NCBI GenBank assembly: GCA_035529195.1
Contig: DATKXE010000085.1
Span: forward strand, 1 to 30,667
Length of the DNA: 30,667 nt
Origin: Anaerolineales bacterium
Lineage (GTDB): Bacteria; Chloroflexota; Anaerolineae; Anaerolineales; UBA4823
Reading direction: 5' to 3'
This document shows positions 467 to 10,231 of the stretch, piece after piece. The position numbers and the translations under genes are program-made. The notes beneath the pieces were generated by a model, which did not search any database, had not been told where the DNA came from, and saw only the letters and a list, made by a program, of their open reading frames with translations. Position 1 is the first letter of the stretch. Every line of letters begins with the position of its first letter.

Positions 467-1411
467 TCAACCATGAATTATCAACTGCGATTCAGGGAGT
501 GGATCTGCGACGGCATCATTAAAAGCTTGGATAACTTCATTGATCACTTCTTGTTCGATTTCGGCGCGCTTTTCAGGATTGACGCGTTTTTCATGTATTG
601 AGATTGGGTCATAGTGTTTCTTCAGATCGAGAATATATTTCTCAGACCGAGTATCGTCACCTTTTGAATGAGGACCGAAGCGTTGTGTGTTGATGATCAA
701 TGCTTGCGGGATTGACTTCAATTTAACATCAGAGATTACCTGGCTTGCCAAAGTATGAATCTGAACAACATCGCTCGTGTCGATAACCCGTGTTTCAATT
801 CCAAACGAATCGAACCGCTTGGCGATATCTCCGGCCAAATTGAGCTCAATTGGCGTGGTTTGGGCAATATGATTATTCTCAACCACAAACAGGATGGGCG
901 CGGACCACAATGAGGCCATGTTCAAGGATTCATATAAGATACCCTCACCCAGGGCACCATCTCCGAGAAATAAAATGGTGATAGTGTTTCGTCTTTTTAG
1001 TTTTTCCGCTAAAGCGATTCCAGTAGCAATTGGTGCAGTACCACCTAATACACCATTTGAGTAAAAATTTTTCCAATGCAGATGCTGTGAACCTCCTCGT
1101 CCACCACATACGCCAGATGTTTTTCCCATCAGCTCTGCGAATAAGGCGTGCATCTCCCCACCATAAGCAAGAAAGTGGCCATGACTGCGGTGATTACTCA
1201 CCACGATATCATCACTTTCTAACTCTTCAAGCACTCCGACAGCATTTGCTTCTTGACCAATATAAGTGTGTGTCGTTCCCCCAAAATACCCACTTGAAAA
1301 TTCATCGAGTACCTTTTCTTCGAAGTGACGAATGCGCAGCATCGAGCGGTAGAAGTTTTCAAACTTTATATTGGAATCCTGGTTCGAATCTCGTGGATGG
1401 GTAATTAACAT
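467..1411 (-). CDS. ThDP-dependent dehydrogenase E1 alpha subunit (PDH/acetoin dehydrogenase-like)
   Basis: Contains HTYIGQEA, NHRSHGH, the ThDP motif GDGALGEG...VVENN and RFGPHSKGDD. Directly followed by a beta subunit. Confidence 0.9.
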   Translation of the reverse strand: MLITHPRDSNQDSNIKFENFYRSMLRIRHFEEKVLDEFSSGYFGGTTHTYIGQEANAVGVLEELESDDIVVSNHRSHGHFLAYGGEMHALFAELMGKTSGVCGGRGGSQHLHWKNFYSNGVLGGTAPIATGIALAEKLKRRNTITILFLGDGALGEGILYESLNMASLWSAPILFVVENNHIAQTTPIELNLAGDIAKRFDSFGIETRVIDTSDVVQIHTLASQVISDVKLKSIPQALIINTQRFGPHSKGDDTRSEKYILDLKKHYDPISIHEKRVNPEKRAEIEQEVINEVIQAFNDAVADPLPESQLIIHG

Positions 1412-1439: not shown

Positions 1440-2096
1440 TTATTGCTCCACGATATCTTTACCGGGAAAACTCTTGCTATTGCTTCCCATGAATTCCCCT
1501 GACGAAATGTGACCCGGTTCGTCTATCCCTTCTCTAAGCAGAACCTTCCAAACCGTTTGCAGAAGAATCTTAATATCCAATGAAAAACTCCAGTTGTCAA
1601 CGTACCAGACATCAAAAATGAATTTGTCTTCCCACGTGATGGCATTACGACCATTGATCTGTGCCCAACCCGTGATTCCCGGTAGAACATCATGACGTCT
1701 GGCTTGTTCTGGAGTATAACGAGAAAGATACTGCATTAATAATGGTCTCGGTCCTACGATACTCATTTCGCCTTTGAATACATTTATTAATTCGGGGACT
1801 TCATCCAAACTTGTGGTGCGTAATACCCTACCCAACCAGGTTACCCGCTGTTCCTCGGGTAATAATCTGCCGTCTGTACTGAATTTTTCAGACATGGTTC
1901 TAAATTTGTATATAGTAAATGGTCTGCCGAGATAACCAGGACGCTGTTGATGGAAGAGAATCGGAAATCCCTGAATAAAAAAGATCAATATTGAAATGAT
2001 CAAAAGGATAGGGAAAAGGACTATAAATCCGCAGGTTGATATAAATAGATCCAATCCCCGCTTAACGAGTGGCACATTATCAGGAAGCAATGGCAT
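1440..2096 (-). CDS. Monotopic polyprenyl-phosphate phosphoglycosyltransferase (bacterial sugar transferase, PglC/WcaJ C-terminal domain type)
   Basis: Contains KRGLD plus a single hydrophobic helix, YKFRTM, SLDEVPELINV-KGEMSIVGPRP, PGITGWAQINGRN and D-WYVDNWS-LDIKIL. Confidence 0.92.
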   Translation of the reverse strand: MPLLPDNVPLVKRGLDLFISTCGFIVLFPILLIISILIFFIQGFPILFHQQRPGYLGRPFTIYKFRTMSEKFSTDGRLLPEEQRVTWLGRVLRTTSLDEVPELINVFKGEMSIVGPRPLLMQYLSRYTPEQARRHDVLPGITGWAQINGRNAITWEDKFIFDVWYVDNWSFSLDIKILLQTVWKVLLREGIDEPGHISSGEFMGSNSKSFPGKDIVEQ

Positions 2097-2101
2097 TCGA
2101 G

Positions 2102-2248
2102 CTATATACTTTGAATAATATTGCTGTACAAGTTCCCAATCGCTGGTCCAAATAAGTAAATTACAATGATCACAATAATCGCAACCAGGATTAAGATTAA
2201 TGCGTATTCTAATAGACTCTGTCCTTGGTTTCTTCCTGATTCACCCAT
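2102..2248 (-). CDS. flp: Flp family type IVb (Tad) pilin, 48 aa
   Basis: Below the ORF-track cutoff and translated by hand: MGESGRNQG|QSLLEYALILILVAIIVIIVIYLFGPAIGNLYSNIIQSI*. It has the G|xxxxEY prepilin motif followed by a hydrophobic helix. GGAGG lies 8 nt upstream of the ATG, and the TAG stop is at 2102-2104. Confidence 0.9.
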   Translation of the reverse strand: MGESGRNQGQSLLEYALILILVAIIVIIVIYLFGPAIGNLYSNIIQSI

Positions 2249-2363
2249 GTCTGCATCCTCCAAGTATGATTCTATTTATTTTACCTGTTAATCCAGGCAA
2301 ATGGATCTTTTTAATTGCAGGTGCAAGTATTAACCCGCTGGAAACTAATAAAACGCATCAAAT

Positions 2364-2509: not shown

Positions 2510-4471
2510 ATGAATACAAAAAGAGCACATAGGGAGGTGTTCAAAGTCTTTCCTTTATTGGTTGTGTTTATTTTCTTGATCGGTTTTTCGTATGTTAATC
2601 CAATTCACAGCTCAAAATCTATATATTTTCCGCTATTGAATCATTTAGTTCCTGTAGGTGCGGAGAGGAACAATAAGCTGGTGATATCGGAAATCATGTT
2701 CAATCCGATAGATTCCGAACCTGGCCACGAATGGATTGAATTGTTTAACCGCAGCTCAGATAGTATAGATTTGCAGGATTTTAAGATTGGAGATAGTGAA
2801 GCACAAGGCGATCTTGAGGGTATGTATGTGTTCCCAGCAGGATCACGAATTTATCCAGGTGAAACGATCGTGATTGCGAACCAATCGATGTTATTCTCCC
2901 AAGTATACGGGTTTAGACCAAATTTTGAGTTATTAAATAGTGATCCGGAAGTAATCAATCTGGTTAAGTACAAAAAATGGGCTGGTGGGGTTATAAACTT
3001 AAACAATTCGGGAGATGAACTATTGCTGCTTGATCAAGAAGATGATCTCATGGATGCTGTCTCTTGGGGTGATTCAATATTTGCTTTCAATCCACCTGCA
3101 CCCAAAACGGAGGACGGTTTTTCCCTCGAGCGCAAACCTGCTAACACCGACAGTAACCGTGCCGATGATTGGTCCATTCTTGCAGAACCCCAACCAGGCA
3201 GAGTAAATTTGGAGGTGCTTACCCCTCTTCCTCAGACTCCGACTGCTACCCAACCCGCATGTGACATTATCACTATTTTGATTTCTGAAATTTTCTACGA
3301 TCCAGAGTTAAGTCCAGAGCCAGATGGTGAGTGGATGGAACTTTATAATTTCGGAAACAAAGAAATCAGCTTGGAATGCGTGTTATTGGGAGATGAAGAA
3401 ACCAATGGAGGGGCGGAGGGCATGATGGTGTTCCCATCTGGAGGCAGCATCTCTCCTGGAGGGGTGATTGTGATCGCTAATCGGGCGAGTATATTTCTAG
3501 ATAACTATGGAATGATCCCTGATTATGAGATCAATGACACAATTGAGGAAATTCCTGATTTGAAATCTTCTCCAATTTGGGCAACTGGAAAAATAAATTT
3601 AAGTAATATCGGGGATGAATTATTCATAACCAAGAAGACTGGATACCTTGTTGATGCAGTTTCCTGGGGTGATTCTGTTATTGCTTTTGATCCATCTGTA
3701 CCCAGTGTAAATCCAGGACATTCAATTTCACGACAACCAGCGAACATGGATACGGATTCAGCGCTAGATTGGGTGGAGCTACCCCTGCCTCAACCTGGGA
3801 TGGTTCAGCTAAATCCACCAAATCCTTCAGCGACTCCTTCACGTACTCCGATGATAGTAACTCCTTCACCAATACCTCCAAATCCTACTGCTACTTCTAC
3901 ACAAACTCCAACCTCAACCTCGACCTCAACCGACACTCCTCAGCCACTAATAAAATTAGTTATTAATGAAATCTTAGCTGATCCAGATGTGGATATGGGG
4001 GATGCAAATAATGATGGGATTGTAGATAATTCGGATGATGAGTTTATAGAGATAATTAACAGCTCTGAAACACTAAGGGATATCAGCGGCTGGGCATTTG
4101 GAGATGTTTTAGATATCAGGCATACCTTCCCCGATGGTTCCATTCTTGAACCCAGTTGTGGTTTAGTTCTATTTGGTGGAGGAAATCCCAACGGGAATTT
4201 TGGAAATTCGCTTGTTCAGGTTGCATCAAGTGGAAAATTAGGTTTGAATGATAATATGGAAAACATTTACTTATATAACTCACAGCTCGAAGTTGTTGCA
4301 AGCCTCAGCTATGGGGAAGAAGCGGGCGATAATCAATCGATTACTCGTGACCCTGATATCGTGGGAACAACTCCATTAAGAAAACATAGTCTGGCGACGG
4401 ATTCTAATGGATCTTTTTTCTCTCCTGGAACACAAATAAATGGAATTAATTTCTCTGGTTGCCCGGAGTGA
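2510..4471 (+). CDS. Secreted or membrane-anchored protein with three lamin-tail domains and Pro/Thr-rich linkers
   Basis: N-terminal hydrophobic segment, then three domains starting ISEIMFNP..EWIELFN, ISEIFYDP..EWMELYN and INEILADP..DEFIEIIN. The first two share LxNxGDE and DAVSWGDS. A PSATPSRTP..TSTSTDTP linker precedes the third domain. Confidence 0.8.
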   Translation: MNTKRAHREVFKVFPLLVVFIFLIGFSYVNPIHSSKSIYFPLLNHLVPVGAERNNKLVISEIMFNPIDSEPGHEWIELFNRSSDSIDLQDFKIGDSEAQGDLEGMYVFPAGSRIYPGETIVIANQSMLFSQVYGFRPNFELLNSDPEVINLVKYKKWAGGVINLNNSGDELLLLDQEDDLMDAVSWGDSIFAFNPPAPKTEDGFSLERKPANTDSNRADDWSILAEPQPGRVNLEVLTPLPQTPTATQPACDIITILISEIFYDPELSPEPDGEWMELYNFGNKEISLECVLLGDEETNGGAEGMMVFPSGGSISPGGVIVIANRASIFLDNYGMIPDYEINDTIEEIPDLKSSPIWATGKINLSNIGDELFITKKTGYLVDAVSWGDSVIAFDPSVPSVNPGHSISRQPANMDTDSALDWVELPLPQPGMVQLNPPNPSATPSRTPMIVTPSPIPPNPTATSTQTPTSTSTSTDTPQPLIKLVINEILADPDVDMGDANNDGIVDNSDDEFIEIINSSETLRDISGWAFGDVLDIRHTFPDGSILEPSCGLVLFGGGNPNGNFGNSLVQVASSGKLGLNDNMENIYLYNSQLEVVASLSYGEEAGDNQSITRDPDIVGTTPLRKHSLATDSNGSFFSPGTQINGINFSGCPE

Positions 4472-4598: not shown

Positions 4599-5321
4599 CT
4601 ATGAAGGTAATCCAGATACCTGCCTGATGACCATGATAACTTTTCCCTTCACTTCGAGTGTACTTGGATCTTTAATAATTATCGGTTCCATTGTTGGATT
4701 GGCAGGTTGAAGTCGAACCTGTCCGTTCTCTCGGAAGAAATATTTTAAGGTTGTTTCGTTATTCTCACTGATCCATATTGCAACCATTTCACCGTTTCTG
4801 GCATCATTTGCTGGCTTCATGATGACGATATCACCATCATTTACCATGGCATCGATCATAGAATCCCCTTGGACTTCCAATGCAAATAGATCCTTTCCCT
4901 TTTCTCTTCCAGGAAGCTGGCTTTGCGGAATCTCAATCTTGCTCTCATAATCATAATAAGAAAAATCTGAGGAAGGGACGGGCATTAATTCACCTGCAAC
5001 AATCCGACCCAAAACAGGTATTTGAAGCATCTCTGATACGGCTTCAGCAGCCTTTCTCATCTGAGTTGAAATCGATTGGGAAGCATTCTCCAAAGGTTTA
5101 AGTAAACGAACGCCCCTTGATATACGCCGGTCCCTTTCGATATATCCCATTTCCTCGAGTTGTTCGAGATAATAATTAACAACAGAGGTAGAGGAGATGC
5201 TTGCTTCAGAACAAATCTCTCGGATAGAAGGGGGATATCCATTTTGATCCTGAAAGCTTTCTAGTACTTCTAGGATTTTCTTTTGACGCTCGCTCAACCC
5301 TTTTTTGCGTTTTCTTGGCAT
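4599..5321 (-). CDS. lexA: SOS transcriptional repressor LexA
   Basis: N-terminal wHTH (LSERQKKIL..GYPPSIREI..STSVV.YYL..LE.MGYI), cleavage region GRIVAG, catalytic Ser in VQGDSM and Lys in TTLK. Start moved to ATG 5321 (MPRKRK) because AGGAG lies 8 nt upstream. Confidence 0.95.
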   Translation of the reverse strand: MPRKRKKGLSERQKKILEVLESFQDQNGYPPSIREICSEASISSTSVVNYYLEQLEEMGYIERDRRISRGVRLLKPLENASQSISTQMRKAAEAVSEMLQIPVLGRIVAGELMPVPSSDFSYYDYESKIEIPQSQLPGREKGKDLFALEVQGDSMIDAMVNDGDIVIMKPANDARNGEMVAIWISENNETTLKYFFRENGQVRLQPANPTMEPIIIKDPSTLEVKGKVIMVIRQVSGLPS

Positions 5322-5365
5322 ACCCATTACTCCTATTAATAATAAAGGAAACACTTGTGCTATAA

Positions 5366-5394
5366 ATAATACACGAACATACGTTCTGTGTCAA
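5366..5394 (-). promoter_or_regulatory. sigma70 promoter of lexA
   Basis: On the minus strand: TTGACA (5394-5389), 17-nt spacer, TATTAT (5371-5366). Confidence 0.8.
5374..5387. promoter_or_regulatory. LexA operator (SOS/Cheo box) CGAACATACGTTCT
   Basis: Matches the Gram-positive/Chloroflexota GAAC-N4-GTTC consensus and sits in the -35/-10 spacer of the lexA promoter. Confidence 0.85.
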
Positions 5395-5445
5395 GGAAAA
5401 GAAACTTCATTTCTTGCGAATAATCTATGGTTTAATTGGTATGCA

Positions 5446-5892
5446 ATGGCTACGAAAAAAGATATATATACCAGGTTGGTATATTCACGTAACAAAACAA
5501 TTGTTGGAAGTATTGCATATTTCACATTAAAAATATTGGGAATTGAGATCCCAAAATCAGTGGTGATTGGTAAAGATTTCGAATTAGCGCATGGTGGATT
5601 CGGTGTTGTGATCCATCCAAAAACAATTATTGGGGATCGGGTGAAAATTTACCCTGGAGTAACCTTGGGGCGATCCGATATTCATCTTCCATTCGAGCGA
5701 TCAGGATTTGAGGGGATTGTTATCGAAGATGATGTTGTTCTGGCTTCCGGAGCGAAAGTGCTTTGTAAGGAAGGCACCCTGCAGGTAAAGAAAGGAACGA
5801 TTATTGGGGCAAATGCAGTTCTCCTTAGCTCGACTCAAGAGAATGAAATCTGGGTAGGTGTTCCTGCAAAGATGGCTGGATACAGGGAGTAA
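5446..5892 (+). CDS. Hexapeptide-repeat O-acyltransferase (serine acetyltransferase/WcaB-like, probably acting on a glycan)
   Basis: Left-handed beta-helix repeats (AHGGFGVVIHPKTIIGDRVKIYPGVTLG, IVIEDDVVLASGAKVL, IIGANAVL, WVGVPAK). It lacks the CysE N-terminal domain. Start moved to ATG 5446 to avoid overlapping lexA and its promoter. Confidence 0.8.
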   Translation: MATKKDIYTRLVYSRNKTIVGSIAYFTLKILGIEIPKSVVIGKDFELAHGGFGVVIHPKTIIGDRVKIYPGVTLGRSDIHLPFERSGFEGIVIEDDVVLASGAKVLCKEGTLQVKKGTIIGANAVLLSSTQENEIWVGVPAKMAGYRE

Positions 5893-5941
5893 CAGTAAAT
5901 ATTTCTAAAGGATTTTTTCACAATCTGAATTGGGAATTGAA

Positions 5942-6988
5942 ATGAAACCCAAGATTTGTCTCGTTCCTCGTTTATCTGGTATAGGTGGTATGGTTTCATT
6001 CCAGGCAAAACTCGCTGCGGGGTTATCGAAACGCGGAATTACCGTGAGTTATGAACTCAGTGATACACATACGGATTCAATATTAGTAATCGGTGGCACT
6101 CGAAATCTCCACCACTTATGGAATGCAAAGCGTCGAGGGACAAGAATTGTCCAGCGATTGGATGGCATGAATTGGATTCACCGTGTAATGAATACTGGAT
6201 TTCACCATCGGTTGAGGGCAGAGTACGGAAATTTCATATTGGGGGTGATCCGCTCGTATCTGGCCGATAAAATTGCTTACCAATCCCAGTTTTCCAGGGA
6301 ATGGTGGCAGAGTGTGAAGGGGGGTACAACTTGTCCCAATGTGGTGATCCATAATGGTGTAGATTTGACAAATTTTTTACCAGGTGGTGATGGAAGGCCT
6401 GTGGGGGATATTATTCGCTTATTGATGGTTGAGGGCAGCTTGCTTGGGGGTTATGAGTTCGGGTTAGATAATGCCATCCAAATGACCAGCGAGGTAGCAA
6501 AAATGGTCAAGACTAGTAAGCTAGTAGAACTTTGGGTTGTGGGTAAGGTATCGAAATCTACAAAAGAATATTGGGATAACTGGTTAATTGATCGTGGAGA
6601 GATGGATGCATTAAAAATCAAATGGTTGGGAATGGTCCCTCATGAGCGGATTGCTGAAATTTATCAACAAGCACATTTACTCTTCTCTGCGGATATTAAT
6701 GCCGCTTGTCCAAACTCTGTGATCGAGTCGATCGCAACCGGAACACCCGTGATCGCATTTGATACCGGCGCATTGTTAGAAATTTTAGAGGATAAAGGTG
6801 GTAAGGTTGTGCCCTATGGTGGCAATCCCTGGCAGATGGACAAGCCCGATATAACATCTCTGGCAGATGGTGCTCTAAGTATTATAAATAACCTTGATGA
6901 TTTTCGAAAATCTGCTCGAGAACGTGCTGAGTCAGCATTCAATCTTGATGATATGGTTGATCGATATGTGGAATTATTGCTGGAATAG
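5942..6988 (+). CDS. GT4 family glycosyltransferase
   Basis: GT-B features: VVIHNGVD, WLGMVPH and CPNSVIESIATGTPVIAFDTG. Start taken at ATG 5942 (MKPKICLV). Confidence 0.88.
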   Translation: MKPKICLVPRLSGIGGMVSFQAKLAAGLSKRGITVSYELSDTHTDSILVIGGTRNLHHLWNAKRRGTRIVQRLDGMNWIHRVMNTGFHHRLRAEYGNFILGVIRSYLADKIAYQSQFSREWWQSVKGGTTCPNVVIHNGVDLTNFLPGGDGRPVGDIIRLLMVEGSLLGGYEFGLDNAIQMTSEVAKMVKTSKLVELWVVGKVSKSTKEYWDNWLIDRGEMDALKIKWLGMVPHERIAEIYQQAHLLFSADINAACPNSVIESIATGTPVIAFDTGALLEILEDKGGKVVPYGGNPWQMDKPDITSLADGALSIINNLDDFRKSARERAESAFNLDDMVDRYVELLLE

Positions 6989-7029
6989 TCATAATTGATC
7001 CGCATGATTTCTTTGATGAGACAAAAGCG

Positions 7030-7896
7030 ATGAAACTCGATAATGTGGCACTTACCTTTACGGCTTATATCGCAAAGGTTCTGCCATTATCATATAAACT
7101 TTCTTTATACAGGAATCCGGCCATTTCTCATTTGATCAGGAAGGGTTTAAATCGTTTTGCACCTGAAGGTCTGAGTATAGTCTCAATCGCATCTGGAGCC
7201 AATGAAGGCCTGAAGATGCGTCTGGATTTGCACAGCGAAAAAGATTATTGGTTGGGGACATATGAGTCTGAACTACAGCAAGCAATTGGAAAGTTGGTCA
7301 AACCTGGGCAGATTGTTTATGATATCGGTGCCAATATTGGCTTTGTCACACTTTTATTTGCCAGGCAAACTGGTCCGCAAGGGCATGTTTTTGCGTTTGA
7401 AGCATTGCCTGCAAATGTAAACCGTCTTAGACAGAGTGTTGAATTGAATCGATACCAGGAGCGGGTGTCTGTGATCCAGGCTGCTGTACAAGATCATACT
7501 GGTCAGGCTGAATTCCTCGTCGGTCCATCGGATGGTATGGGGAAAGTTCAAGGGTCTGCTGGAAGGGATTCAATAGATTATGAGCAAAGGATTCAAGTCG
7601 AAGGAATTTCAATTGACCAATTCATAGGCAATTCCGGAAACCCTCCTCCAGATATTATTAAAATGGATATCGAGGGTGGGGAAATTTTAGCACTCCCCGG
7701 TATGGCAAGCCTCCTGCAGGAGGGGCGGCCGTTACTTTTGATAGAATTGCATGGACCGGAGGCAGCTCGAGTAAGTTGGGAAGCTCTAAGAACAGCTGAT
7801 TATCGAATAACCCAGATGGAATCTCAATTCCCACAAGTGATGAGTGTTGAGGATTTAAATTGGAAATCATATTTGGTGGCTTTCCCAAGTGAATAG
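7030..7896 (+). CDS. FkbM family SAM-dependent methyltransferase
   Basis: Contains VYDIGANIGF (SAM motif I), VFAFEALPAN and DIIKMDIEGGE. Confidence 0.88.
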   Translation: MKLDNVALTFTAYIAKVLPLSYKLSLYRNPAISHLIRKGLNRFAPEGLSIVSIASGANEGLKMRLDLHSEKDYWLGTYESELQQAIGKLVKPGQIVYDIGANIGFVTLLFARQTGPQGHVFAFEALPANVNRLRQSVELNRYQERVSVIQAAVQDHTGQAEFLVGPSDGMGKVQGSAGRDSIDYEQRIQVEGISIDQFIGNSGNPPPDIIKMDIEGGEILALPGMASLLQEGRPLLLIELHGPEAARVSWEALRTADYRITQMESQFPQVMSVEDLNWKSYLVAFPSE

Positions 7897-9043
7897 CAAA
7901 AGCAGTGTTTTTCCTGGAAGATTGGGAATACAACAGCGGGTTCTACCGACTTACCGGGTGGATTTTTTCGATCTACTGGCCCAGGCATGTGAAGATGGGC
8001 TTTGTATATTTGCGGGAGACGTGCAGCCTCAAGAATCAATTCCAACAACGAGTGACCTAAAAGTAGCAGAATTTGTGGAATCCAGAAACTACCATTTTCG
8101 AGATGTCCAATCTTCCTGCTATTTCCTCTGGCAAGGGGGATTAATTAATTGGCTGGAGAATTGGAAACCAGATGTTTTAGTCGTGGAAGCAAATCCCAGA
8201 TATTTGAGCACGAACAAGGGAATCCAATGGATGCATGCTCGCGGTAAACCTGTGATCGGATGGGGATTGGGGGCGCCGCTGATTGACACCCCAAAATCAC
8301 CAGGAGGGAGGATCAATAAAGATTTCCGGAGCTACTTGAGGGGAAGAATGCTGAAACGGTTAGATGGCTTGATTGCGTATAGCCACAAGGGAGCAAGGGA
8401 ATATAAAGAGATTGCATTCCCACAACAACCGGTATATGTGGCATCAAACGCTGTTGCGAAGCACCCGAAAGGATCCCCTTTAGAGCGATCTACTCATTTT
8501 AATGGTCGTCCGGTCGTCCTTTTTGTTGGTCGAATTCAAACCCGGAAGAGAATAGATATTCTTCTACGTGCATGCTCTGCTCTCCCAGAAATTTTGCAGC
8601 CTATGCTTTGGATTGTTGGGGATGGACCAATGAAGGAAAATTTGGAATTATTGGCCAGTGAGATTTATCCAAAGGCTAAATTTACAGGAAGAAAAGGTGG
8701 CGGTGAATTAGCAAGTATTTTTCAAAAGGCTGATTTATTCGTCTTACCAGGTACAGGAGGATTGGCAGTACAAGAAGCCATGTCATATGCTTTACCAGTG
8801 ATTGTTGCCGAGGGGGATGGCACTCAAGGTGATTTAGTCAAGCCTGAAAATGGATGGTTAATCCCCCCAAACGATGAGCAAGCTTTACGAGAGACACTCA
8901 TACTGGCGCTTTCGAATCCAGCTCGATTACGACAAATGGGAAAGTGCTCCTATCAAATTGTTCAAAATGAGGTCAATATTGAGCAAATGGTTGTTACTTT
9001 TCTAAATGCAATCAATGATTCTGCATTAACAGGCACTGGGTAA
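7889..9043 (+). CDS. GT4 family glycosyltransferase
   Basis: Contains VLFVGRIQTRKRID, IVGDGP and ADLFVLPGTGGLAVQEAMSYALPVI. The GTG start overlaps the FkbM stop. Confidence 0.88.
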   Translation: MNSKSSVFPGRLGIQQRVLPTYRVDFFDLLAQACEDGLCIFAGDVQPQESIPTTSDLKVAEFVESRNYHFRDVQSSCYFLWQGGLINWLENWKPDVLVVEANPRYLSTNKGIQWMHARGKPVIGWGLGAPLIDTPKSPGGRINKDFRSYLRGRMLKRLDGLIAYSHKGAREYKEIAFPQQPVYVASNAVAKHPKGSPLERSTHFNGRPVVLFVGRIQTRKRIDILLRACSALPEILQPMLWIVGDGPMKENLELLASEIYPKAKFTGRKGGGELASIFQKADLFVLPGTGGLAVQEAMSYALPVIVAEGDGTQGDLVKPENGWLIPPNDEQALRETLILALSNPARLRQMGKCSYQIVQNEVNIEQMVVTFLNAINDSALTGTG

Positions 9044-9046
9044 GCG

Positions 9047-10231
9047 ATGCGTTTGTTATTTGTATGCGATGCGCGTTCACCCATAGCAATGAACTGGATC
9101 TCTTATTTTGTTGAACAGGGGGATGAAGTCCATATCGCGTCAACCTTTGATTTTAAACCTGATATGCCATTTGCTAGTGTAAATGTGGTTCCGATTGCAT
9201 TCAGCCAGTTGAAGAAGAGCCATTCTCAAAAAGAGGCAAGAAATCACAGAGAAGGATTGCTGTGGAATTCTTCGTTGGTTAATTTCAGGACTGCTTTTCG
9301 GCGAATCCTTGCACCGCTTACCCTTAATTCTGCAGCTAATAAATTATCCGACCTGATTTCCGAGATCCAGCCCGAGCTTATTCATGCCATGCGTATCCCT
9401 TTTGAAGGTATTTTGACCGCAAGCGCTTTACGCCAAGAAATGAATTCACCATTGATTGTTTCAGTTTGGGGGAACGATTTTACTTTGCATGCAGGTACAA
9501 CTCCTTGGATGAGGAGATCAACAAAGCAAGTGTTATCCAGAACTGATGGTTTACATCTTGATTGCCAGCGTGATCGGATATTGGCATCCAACTGGGGATA
9601 TGCAAGTGATCGTCCAACCATTGTAATTCCTGGTAATGGTGGTATCGATACTGATGTGTTCTATCCACCCAAGGATGAGACGAAATCTAGAAAACTGATG
9701 GTGATCAATCCACGTGGAATCCGCGCATATATTCGCAATGACACCTTCTTCGCAGCGATTCCACAGATATTGACCCAAATGCCAGACACAAAATTTATCT
9801 GTCCTGGAATGGCGGGAGAAACAGAAGCTGAGAAATGGATTGAAAAATATAATCTTTTTTCATCTGTTGAACTGCTTCCTAATTTGCCCAGACAAGAAAT
9901 GGCGGATCTATTCCGGGGTGCAGCGGTTTCGGTTTCTCCAAGTACCCACGATGGTACTCCAAACACGCTCCTCGAAGCAATGGCTTGTGGATGCTATCCA
10001 GTCGCTGGAGATTTGGATTCCATTCGGGAATGGATCAATCCTGGGATCAATGGAACTTTGATTGATCCAAACGATCCAAATGACCTCGCAAATGCGGTGA
10101 TCCGCGCTTTATCGCAAGAAGACCTACGCAAACAAGCAGCGCTTTTAAATACTGCAGTAATCAAAGAAAGGGCAGAATACCATTCTTCAATGAATCAGGC
10201 TCGTATTTTTTATCGATCCCTGCATAGATAA
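9047..10231 (+). CDS. GT4 family glycosyltransferase
   Basis: Contains VSVWGND, IPGNGGIDTDVF and HDGTPNTLLEAMACGCYPVAGD. Confidence 0.88.
   Translation: MRLLFVCDARSPIAMNWISYFVEQGDEVHIASTFDFKPDMPFASVNVVPIAFSQLKKSHSQKEARNHREGLLWNSSLVNFRTAFRRILAPLTLNSAANKLSDLISEIQPELIHAMRIPFEGILTASALRQEMNSPLIVSVWGNDFTLHAGTTPWMRRSTKQVLSRTDGLHLDCQRDRILASNWGYASDRPTIVIPGNGGIDTDVFYPPKDETKSRKLMVINPRGIRAYIRNDTFFAAIPQILTQMPDTKFICPGMAGETEAEKWIEKYNLFSSVELLPNLPRQEMADLFRGAAVSVSPSTHDGTPNTLLEAMACGCYPVAGDLDSIREWINPGINGTLIDPNDPNDLANAVIRALSQEDLRKQAALLNTAVIKERAEYHSSMNQARIFYRSLHR

Follow-up and report, generated by a model that had tools for sequence, protein, structure and literature searches.

Does a pilin gene that lies directly in front of a glycan-synthesis gene encode a protein that is decorated by its neighbour, or do the two genes merely share a location? 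This question is raised by a 30,667-nt stretch of DNA from an Anaerolineales bacterium, which was analysed as a whole and is referred to here as the window. Its initial annotation described a short Flp-type pilin gene immediately upstream of a gene for a PglC-type phosphoglycosyltransferase and proposed that an orphan pilin is co-expressed with the enzymes that glycosylate it. The window is a contig (C85) of a metagenome-assembled genome (MAG) of 3.8 Mb, which consists of 671 contigs and is 82% complete. The window was annotated with Pfam, covering open reading frames (ORFs) of at least 90 aa, and the features that bear on the question are collected in Table 1.

Table 1. Coordinates of the flp gene, its expression signals and its neighbours in the window
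Feature	Position	Strand	Basis
E1 beta subunit, cut by the contig end	3..470	-	
ThDP-dependent E1 alpha subunit, next gene in the transferase operon	467..1411	-	PF00676, E 1.8e-48
PglC-type small monotopic phosphoglycosyltransferase, 218 aa (ATG 2096-2094)	1440..2096	-	PF02397, E 3e-62
Spacer between flp stop and transferase ATG, 5 nt, without Shine-Dalgarno	2097..2101	-	
flp paralogue, 48-codon Flp/Tad-type prepilin (ATG 2248-2246, stop TAG 2104-2102)	2102..2248	-	homology to the tad-locus Flp of contig C387 and purifying selection
Shine-Dalgarno GGAGG, 8-nt spacer to flp ATG	2256..2260	-	
Candidate flp promoter -10 element GGTAAAAT	2278..2285	-	predicted from an alignment of four same-genus genomes
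Secreted or anchored protein, three lamin-tail domains (LTD), Pro/Thr-rich linkers	2510..4471	+	PF00932, E 2.8e-46
Hexapeptide acyltransferase, GT1, FkbM methyltransferase, GT1, GT1	5305..10231	+	Pfam

The sequence features on which the proposal had been built were all confirmed, namely the G/QSLLEY junction, the strong GGAGG, the 5-nt gap to the transferase, the serines S42 and S47 and the absence of an N-X-S/T sequon. The product of the small ORF carries a polar leader of nine residues that ends in Gly9, followed by QSLLEY and a hydrophobic stretch of approximately 22 residues. The mature product of 39 residues is a hydrophobic helix with a tail of the form YLFGP...GNLYSNIIQSI, the short tail being GPAIGNLYSNIIQSI. 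All seven complete orthologues have exactly 48 codons and are preceded by AGGAG or GGAGG; an eighth one, from G006, is masked in part. In the transferase-linked pilins, Met1, Gly9, Gln10, Ser11, Glu14 and Tyr15 are invariant, and the remaining leader positions vary. Within the genus, the mature 39 codons showed 15-24 synonymous versus 0-2 non-synonymous differences (24:0 in the comparison with G005), while the differences in the nine leader codons were mostly non-synonymous. The mature pilin is thus nearly invariant in a genus whose transferases are only 65-73% identical. A large synonymous excess in the mature part combined with a free leader is what a translated prepilin should show, and on this codon-level evidence we regard the ORF as a real, translated gene under very strong constraint. 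It had been described as hidden, and it is indeed missed by length-limited ORF tracks; however, the exact sequence is already present in the JGI, ENA and Logan collections, so some pipelines do call it.

The assignment of the product to the Flp family was then considered. At 48 aa, with a Gly-ended leader and about 20 hydrophobic residues, it conforms to the short prepilins of the G/xxxxEY type (approximately 45-80 aa). Its score against the Pfam family Flp_Fap (PF04964) was 15.1 bits, below the cut-off of 32.2, its Class_IIIsignal score of 16 bits was likewise sub-threshold, and a search of NCBIfam gave no match. The bona fide tad-locus Flp of the same genome also falls just under the PF04964 cut-off, at 30 bits, and the window Flp is 58% identical to it (E 1.6e-12). 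Two Flp-like genes are present in the genome besides the window copy, on contigs C387 and C633. The C633 gene (positions 2770-3051, minus strand), which lies near a contig end, has a longer leader and a G/QDLAEY junction.

The initial annotation had called the pilin an orphan, with no tad or prepilin-peptidase gene in the window, and Pfam found neither among the window ORFs of at least 90 aa. A canonical tad locus was found elsewhere in the genome, running from C387 to C565 in the order LuxR-type regulator, HisKA_3 kinase, Flp, RcpC/CpaB, TadZ-like REC-ParA protein, TadA (T2SSE), TadB and TadC (T2SSF twice). The end of C387 and the start of C565 encode nearly the same reverse-frame peptide within the TadZ-like gene, and from this overlap the two contigs probably join into one locus. 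An A24 prepilin peptidase (Peptidase_A24) is encoded on C89, and neither this gene nor any tad gene adjoins the window flp. The identity to the tad-locus Flp and the location of the machinery on other contigs together indicate that the window gene is an orphan and a paralogue of the major pilin of the tad locus. Judging from these gene assignments, the machinery for its processing and assembly is available in trans.

Anaerolineae tad genes have been noted earlier (PMC4877987), and Flp matches occurred in 109 of the 121 sampled genomes of the family, usually two or three apiece; it is common here for Flp pilins to be encoded away from tad loci. In two other genera, an orphan Flp with a YLLGP...GNMYS tail lies beside a mutS2-like gene (L057 in G128 and L065 in G064). 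These orphans are intermediate between the tad-locus type and the window type and mark a second recurrent location of orphan Flps. In another relative, a stretch of 1.7 kb next to a HisKA_3-type kinase gene contains five or more Flp genes of the tad-locus type in tandem (L050; G057:C366:359-3484).

The identification of the downstream neighbour as a PglC-type enzyme was borne out. The Bac_transf domain (PF02397) covers residues 12-186 of the transferase, and residues 11-206 align to the solved N,N'-diacetylbacillosaminyl-1-phosphate transferase PglC (8e37) with E 1.5e-59, the LDE(V/L)P and GPRP motifs being matched. The protein has the properties of the PglC class, that is, a single Bac_transf domain of about 200 aa, an N-terminal membrane helix, a catalytic Asp-Glu and a PRP motif. 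Orthologues (E below 1e-60, 53-73% identity) were found in 106 of the 121 family genomes and in 44 of the 45 high-quality ones, a distribution that marks the transferase as a single-copy core gene of the family. The E1 alpha gene follows it in the same order in G001, G005, G065 and G066. Beyond E1 beta, the operon of G005 and G001 encodes an acyltransferase in which lipoyl, PglD_N and hexapeptide parts are fused, a PglE-like aminotransferase of the DegT type and a member of the UbiA family. From this gene content, we consider the operon to be a family-wide Pgl-like module that would make an N-acylated amino sugar on a lipid carrier and that works without flp. A UDP-diNAcBac-type sugar is the putative substrate of the transferase, in view of the PglD_N/hexapeptide and DegT genes of the G005 operon. 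In G005, the gene that follows E1 beta (L037:14891-16012) combines a lipoyl/biotinyl-attachment domain, PglD_N and a hexapeptide acyltransferase in one protein. The lipoyl-PglD fusion and the E1 alpha and beta genes suggest that the amino sugar is N-acylated with an acyl group generated by oxidative decarboxylation on a lipoyl arm and not taken from acyl-CoA.

On the other side of flp, the five-gene block at the far end of Table 1 keeps its order in G001 and G005 and, going by its proximity, probably encodes later steps of the same glycan. A LexA gene lies on the minus strand within the window, and unrelated metabolism genes follow further along. An Rfam scan of the whole window gave no match.

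We asked how widely the pairing of flp and transferase is distributed. The adjacency extends beyond the window genome, flp being found directly upstream of the transferase in eight species, which belong to four GTDB genera only. Among the nine genomes of the window's genus, the five in which the genes are linked all have a gap of 5 nt; the gap is 3 nt in G065, 53 nt in G066 and 118 nt in G070, so that it measures 3-5 nt in six of the eight flp-linked species. Between the four genera, the linked pilins are 63-69% identical to that of the window and the transferases about 60%. The genomes of approximately 185,000 species were scanned with two peptide patterns drawn from an alignment of the window pilin, GQS[LI][LIV]EYAL and a helix segment that contains YLF. 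Among the Flps that carry either pattern, transferase-linked copies occurred solely in the seven relatives already known. At the 73 other Flp loci that were fetched, the flanking DNA retrieved with them, 3 kb at most, contains no transferase homologue. By contrast with these eight species, the transferase operon occurs without flp in about 98 of the 106 genomes, and in the remaining genera the gene upstream of the transferase is Mfd, LexA, a response regulator or another one.

The LTD gene lies divergently upstream of flp in all eight flp-bearing species, and LexA stands directly before the transferase in other genera; the simplest history is therefore one insertion of LTD and flp between LexA and the transferase. 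This arrangement suggests a lineage-specific origin of the pairing, by insertion ahead of a glycan operon with a housekeeping role, and we infer a single such event from the gene order. In a maximum-likelihood tree of 46 transferase orthologues, the flp-linked state requires four changes on the best tree, of which well-supported branches force only one. With this low resolution, the tree speaks neither for nor against a single origin of this state. In G085, where an LTD gene is divergent to the transferase, the 344-nt gap between them contains no hidden flp.

The co-expression that the initial annotation had assumed was examined through expression signals. In the window's genus, the 5-nt spacer is too short for a terminator, and a scan of positions 1300-2700 predicted none. 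These two features make co-transcription of flp and transferase likely in this genus. RNA data were available as Logan contigs of four small RNA libraries, and flp was covered by such contigs in two independent samples. A single 151-nt piece (1972-2122) crosses the junction, with 21 nt on the flp side against a criterion of 31 nt and with DNA carry-over possible, and as a sign of co-transcription it is suggestive. In G070, on the other hand, a GC-rich hairpin with an 11-bp stem and a T-rich tail is located 33-63 nt past the flp stop (z = -3.2), and a TGGTACAAT box lies 11 nt before the transferase ATG. With this terminator and promoter between the genes, flp and the transferase of G070 have separate signals. 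Co-expression is thus structurally likely in the window's genus, yet co-transcription is not a conserved property of the pairing.

The transferase has no Shine-Dalgarno sequence before its ATG, and the flp-less relatives offer an explanation. In at least 14 of 39 such relatives, a TAnnAT -10 box is positioned 4-9 nt before the transferase start, while about 0.5 would be expected by chance, which indicates that the transferase mRNA was ancestrally leaderless or nearly so. The box is mostly TGGTAGAAT, an extended -10 element. In L014, L021, L024, L025, L027, L029, L071 and others, 6-7 nt separate its end from the transferase start. Because the missing Shine-Dalgarno is ancestral, it is no evidence of coupling to flp. 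Upstream of flp itself, an 11-nt block, ACAGGTAAAAT, is invariant in four same-genus genomes and is a plausible flp -10 element that resembles the extended -10 TGGTAnAAT of the family. About 60 nt upstream of this candidate element, in the flp/LTD intergenic region (2320-2336), a further block of about 16 nt, reading GGnTnAATACTTGCAC on the minus strand, is conserved in four same-genus genomes. A regulator may bind at this second block, or it may serve as the promoter of LTD.

Could the glycan operon nevertheless modify the pilin? In such a scenario, the enzymes co-expressed with the orphan Flp would make a lipid-linked glycan of the bacillosamine type, which an O-oligosaccharyltransferase from another locus would transfer to a C-terminal Ser or Thr of the pilin. 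The tight gap in most of the linked species is in keeping with this idea, as is the neighbour itself, a true PglC homologue within a PglC/PglD/PglE-like module; in Neisseria, the PglC/PglD/PglE enzyme set serves both pilin and general O-glycosylation. At least one Ser or Thr is present among the last 10 residues of every linked pilin, and the genome encodes two Wzy_C-family proteins of PglL-like size (C32 and C294). There is also a precedent in the Tad pili, as the Flp1 of A. actinomycetemcomitans is mentioned as glycosylated in a passage of PMC6182317 that cites Inoue 2000. However, the solved Caulobacter Tad pilus contains no extra density attributable to a glycan or other modification (PMC10710030). 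The transferase operon is present without flp in most of its family, so its primary product must be something else, and glycan genes found in 106 of 121 genomes show no specific co-occurrence with a pilin found in eight species. In G070 the two genes are divided by a predicted terminator and promoter. A conserved acceptor is also lacking among the linked pilins, since S42 is replaced by Ala in G065, and S47 by Asn in G006 and G070 and by Thr in G066, while the tad-locus Flp carries serines at the same positions with no glycan genes nearby. The search for an O-oligosaccharyltransferase that the initial annotation had called for yielded the two Wzy_C proteins, both encoded in glycan clusters away from flp, but only sub-threshold matches to STT3/PglB in this 82%-complete MAG. 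C294 is part of an ordinary Wzz/WecA-type polysaccharide cluster. C32 is not co-distributed with flp, being absent from the hits in the closed, flp-bearing genome G005 and present in many flp-less genomes. The co-location of flp and a glycan operon does not by itself imply a glycan on the pilin, and we consider it improbable that the pairing is a pilin-glycosylation operon. The claim that the operon enzymes decorate the pilin was not supported, and an undescribed Tad-pilus glycosylation system, a reading drawn from the adjacency, is speculation. It is very unlikely that the YLFGP-type orphan Flp represents the first case of a Tad pilin gene physically fused to its own bacillosamine-type O-glycan operon, with its exposed C-terminal tail glycosylated by a Wzy_C-type transferase elsewhere to give a glycosylated alternative Tad fibre.

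Two other readings give the transferase or the pilin a different part. If flp and the divergent LTD gene formed a module of two genes that acts at the cell surface or in adhesion, such as a pilus variant with a secreted adhesin, the transferase would be a mere landing site. The constant divergent neighbourhood of the two genes, their apparent joint insertion between genes that are direct neighbours in other genera, and the conserved 16-nt block in their shared intergenic region all accord with such a module. But G003, G045, G100 and G107 have close LTD homologues (44-51% identity) with no flp and away from the transferase, and the LTD protein has no prepilin motif. In G003, the one genome examined of the same genus that has kept LTD and LexA and lacks the transferase operon, flp is missing too, which means that flp tracks the operon and not LTD. 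This pattern is a point in favour of a tie between glycan and pilin, but it is explained equally well by a single deletion of adjacent genes. On balance, we regard an independent LTD-flp module as unlikely. As for the LTD protein itself, long Pro/Thr/Ser-rich linkers separate its three lamin-tail domains, and a YFPL/YLPIV-type motif after an N-terminal hydrophobic segment recurs in orthologues. By their composition, these linkers look more like a typical target of O-glycosylation than the pilin does. Alternatively, the Flp-like peptide might have been co-opted outside the pilus, either as a small membrane partner of the transferase or as an upstream ORF that delivers ribosomes to a transferase start without its own ribosome-binding site. 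The short gap in front of a start that lacks a Shine-Dalgarno would suit this role, as would a mature sequence that changes far less than the transferase. Neither a coupling ORF nor a membrane helix, however, would need the prepilin leader, Gly-1 and Glu5, all of which are kept. Moreover, in most of its family the transferase does without any partner of this kind, its start lacks a Shine-Dalgarno there too owing to the leaderless mRNA, and in G070 it is separated from flp. A role of this kind for the peptide seems quite doubtful to us.

The explanation that we favour, and hold to be reasonably probable, is that the small gene is a paralogue of the Flp-family (Tad/type IVc) prepilins that is used by the Tad system and was inserted, together with LTD, ahead of a core Pgl-like operon. 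The precursor would most likely be cleaved after Gly9 by the A24 prepilin peptidase of the genome, and the mature peptide would be assembled by the C387/C565 Tad machinery as an alternative or minor pilin. The divergent LTD and flp genes would have entered as a two-gene module directly upstream of an envelope-glycan operon with the order PglC-type transferase, E1 alpha/beta, lipoyl-PglD-like acyltransferase, PglE-like aminotransferase and UbiA. The gap would then have shrunk to 5 nt in the window's genus, and with so short a gap transcription from the flp promoter probably now reads through into the glycan operon as well, possibly together with termination-reinitiation. Some observations weigh against this explanation. 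The adjacency has been kept across four genera with a gap of 3-5 nt in two lineages, which could reflect selection for co-expression rather than inertia. To these are added the association of flp with the transferase operon in G003, the unresolved branches of the transferase tree, the sub-threshold Flp_Fap score and the fragmentary MAG.

The biology as it stands is ordinary: a paralogous pilin and a PglC operon. Nevertheless, the annotation of Anaerolineales gains a well-supported small gene, which represents a very strongly constrained subclade of orphan Flp pilins. The locus illustrates how a strongly expressed pilin gene can become the leading cistron of an envelope-glycan operon that has a housekeeping role and an ancestrally leaderless mRNA. 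It also makes glycosylation of a Tad pilin testable in eight named genomes.

The locus can be compared with several known systems. In P. aeruginosa 1244, the gene beside the pilin gene encodes an oligosaccharyltransferase. With the pilin O-glycosylation systems (Neisseria pgl/PglL and Pseudomonas aeruginosa 1244 PilO), the window shares a pilin gene near glycan-synthesis genes and a bacillosamine-type initiating enzyme. Unlike in P. aeruginosa 1244, the neighbour of the pilin here is the initiating transferase of a housekeeping operon, and in contrast to both systems the pilin is of type IVc rather than type IVa, with no dedicated transferase to protein identified and no conserved acceptor serine. 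The window transferase agrees in size, catalytic Asp-Glu and PRP motif with the PglC of Campylobacter (8e37, 8g1n) and with the EpsL-type small phosphoglycosyltransferases. PglD-like and PglE-like genes are common to the Campylobacter PglC system and the window-type operon; however, PglB was not found here, and in the relatives the PglD-like acyltransferase carries a fused lipoyl domain and is encoded together with E1 alpha/beta. The pilin itself is to be compared with the Flp/Fap pilins of Tad (type IVc) pili, such as Caulobacter PilA and Aggregatibacter Flp1 (PF04964). Like these, the window Flp is a very short prepilin with a Gly-ended leader, one hydrophobic helix and Glu5-Tyr6 following the cleavage site, and its genome has a tad locus and an A24 peptidase. 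It differs from them in scoring below the Pfam threshold and in forming a distinct YLFGP subclade confined to eight Anaerolineales species, in which its gene is not part of a tad locus and comes first, in front of the genes of a glycan operon.
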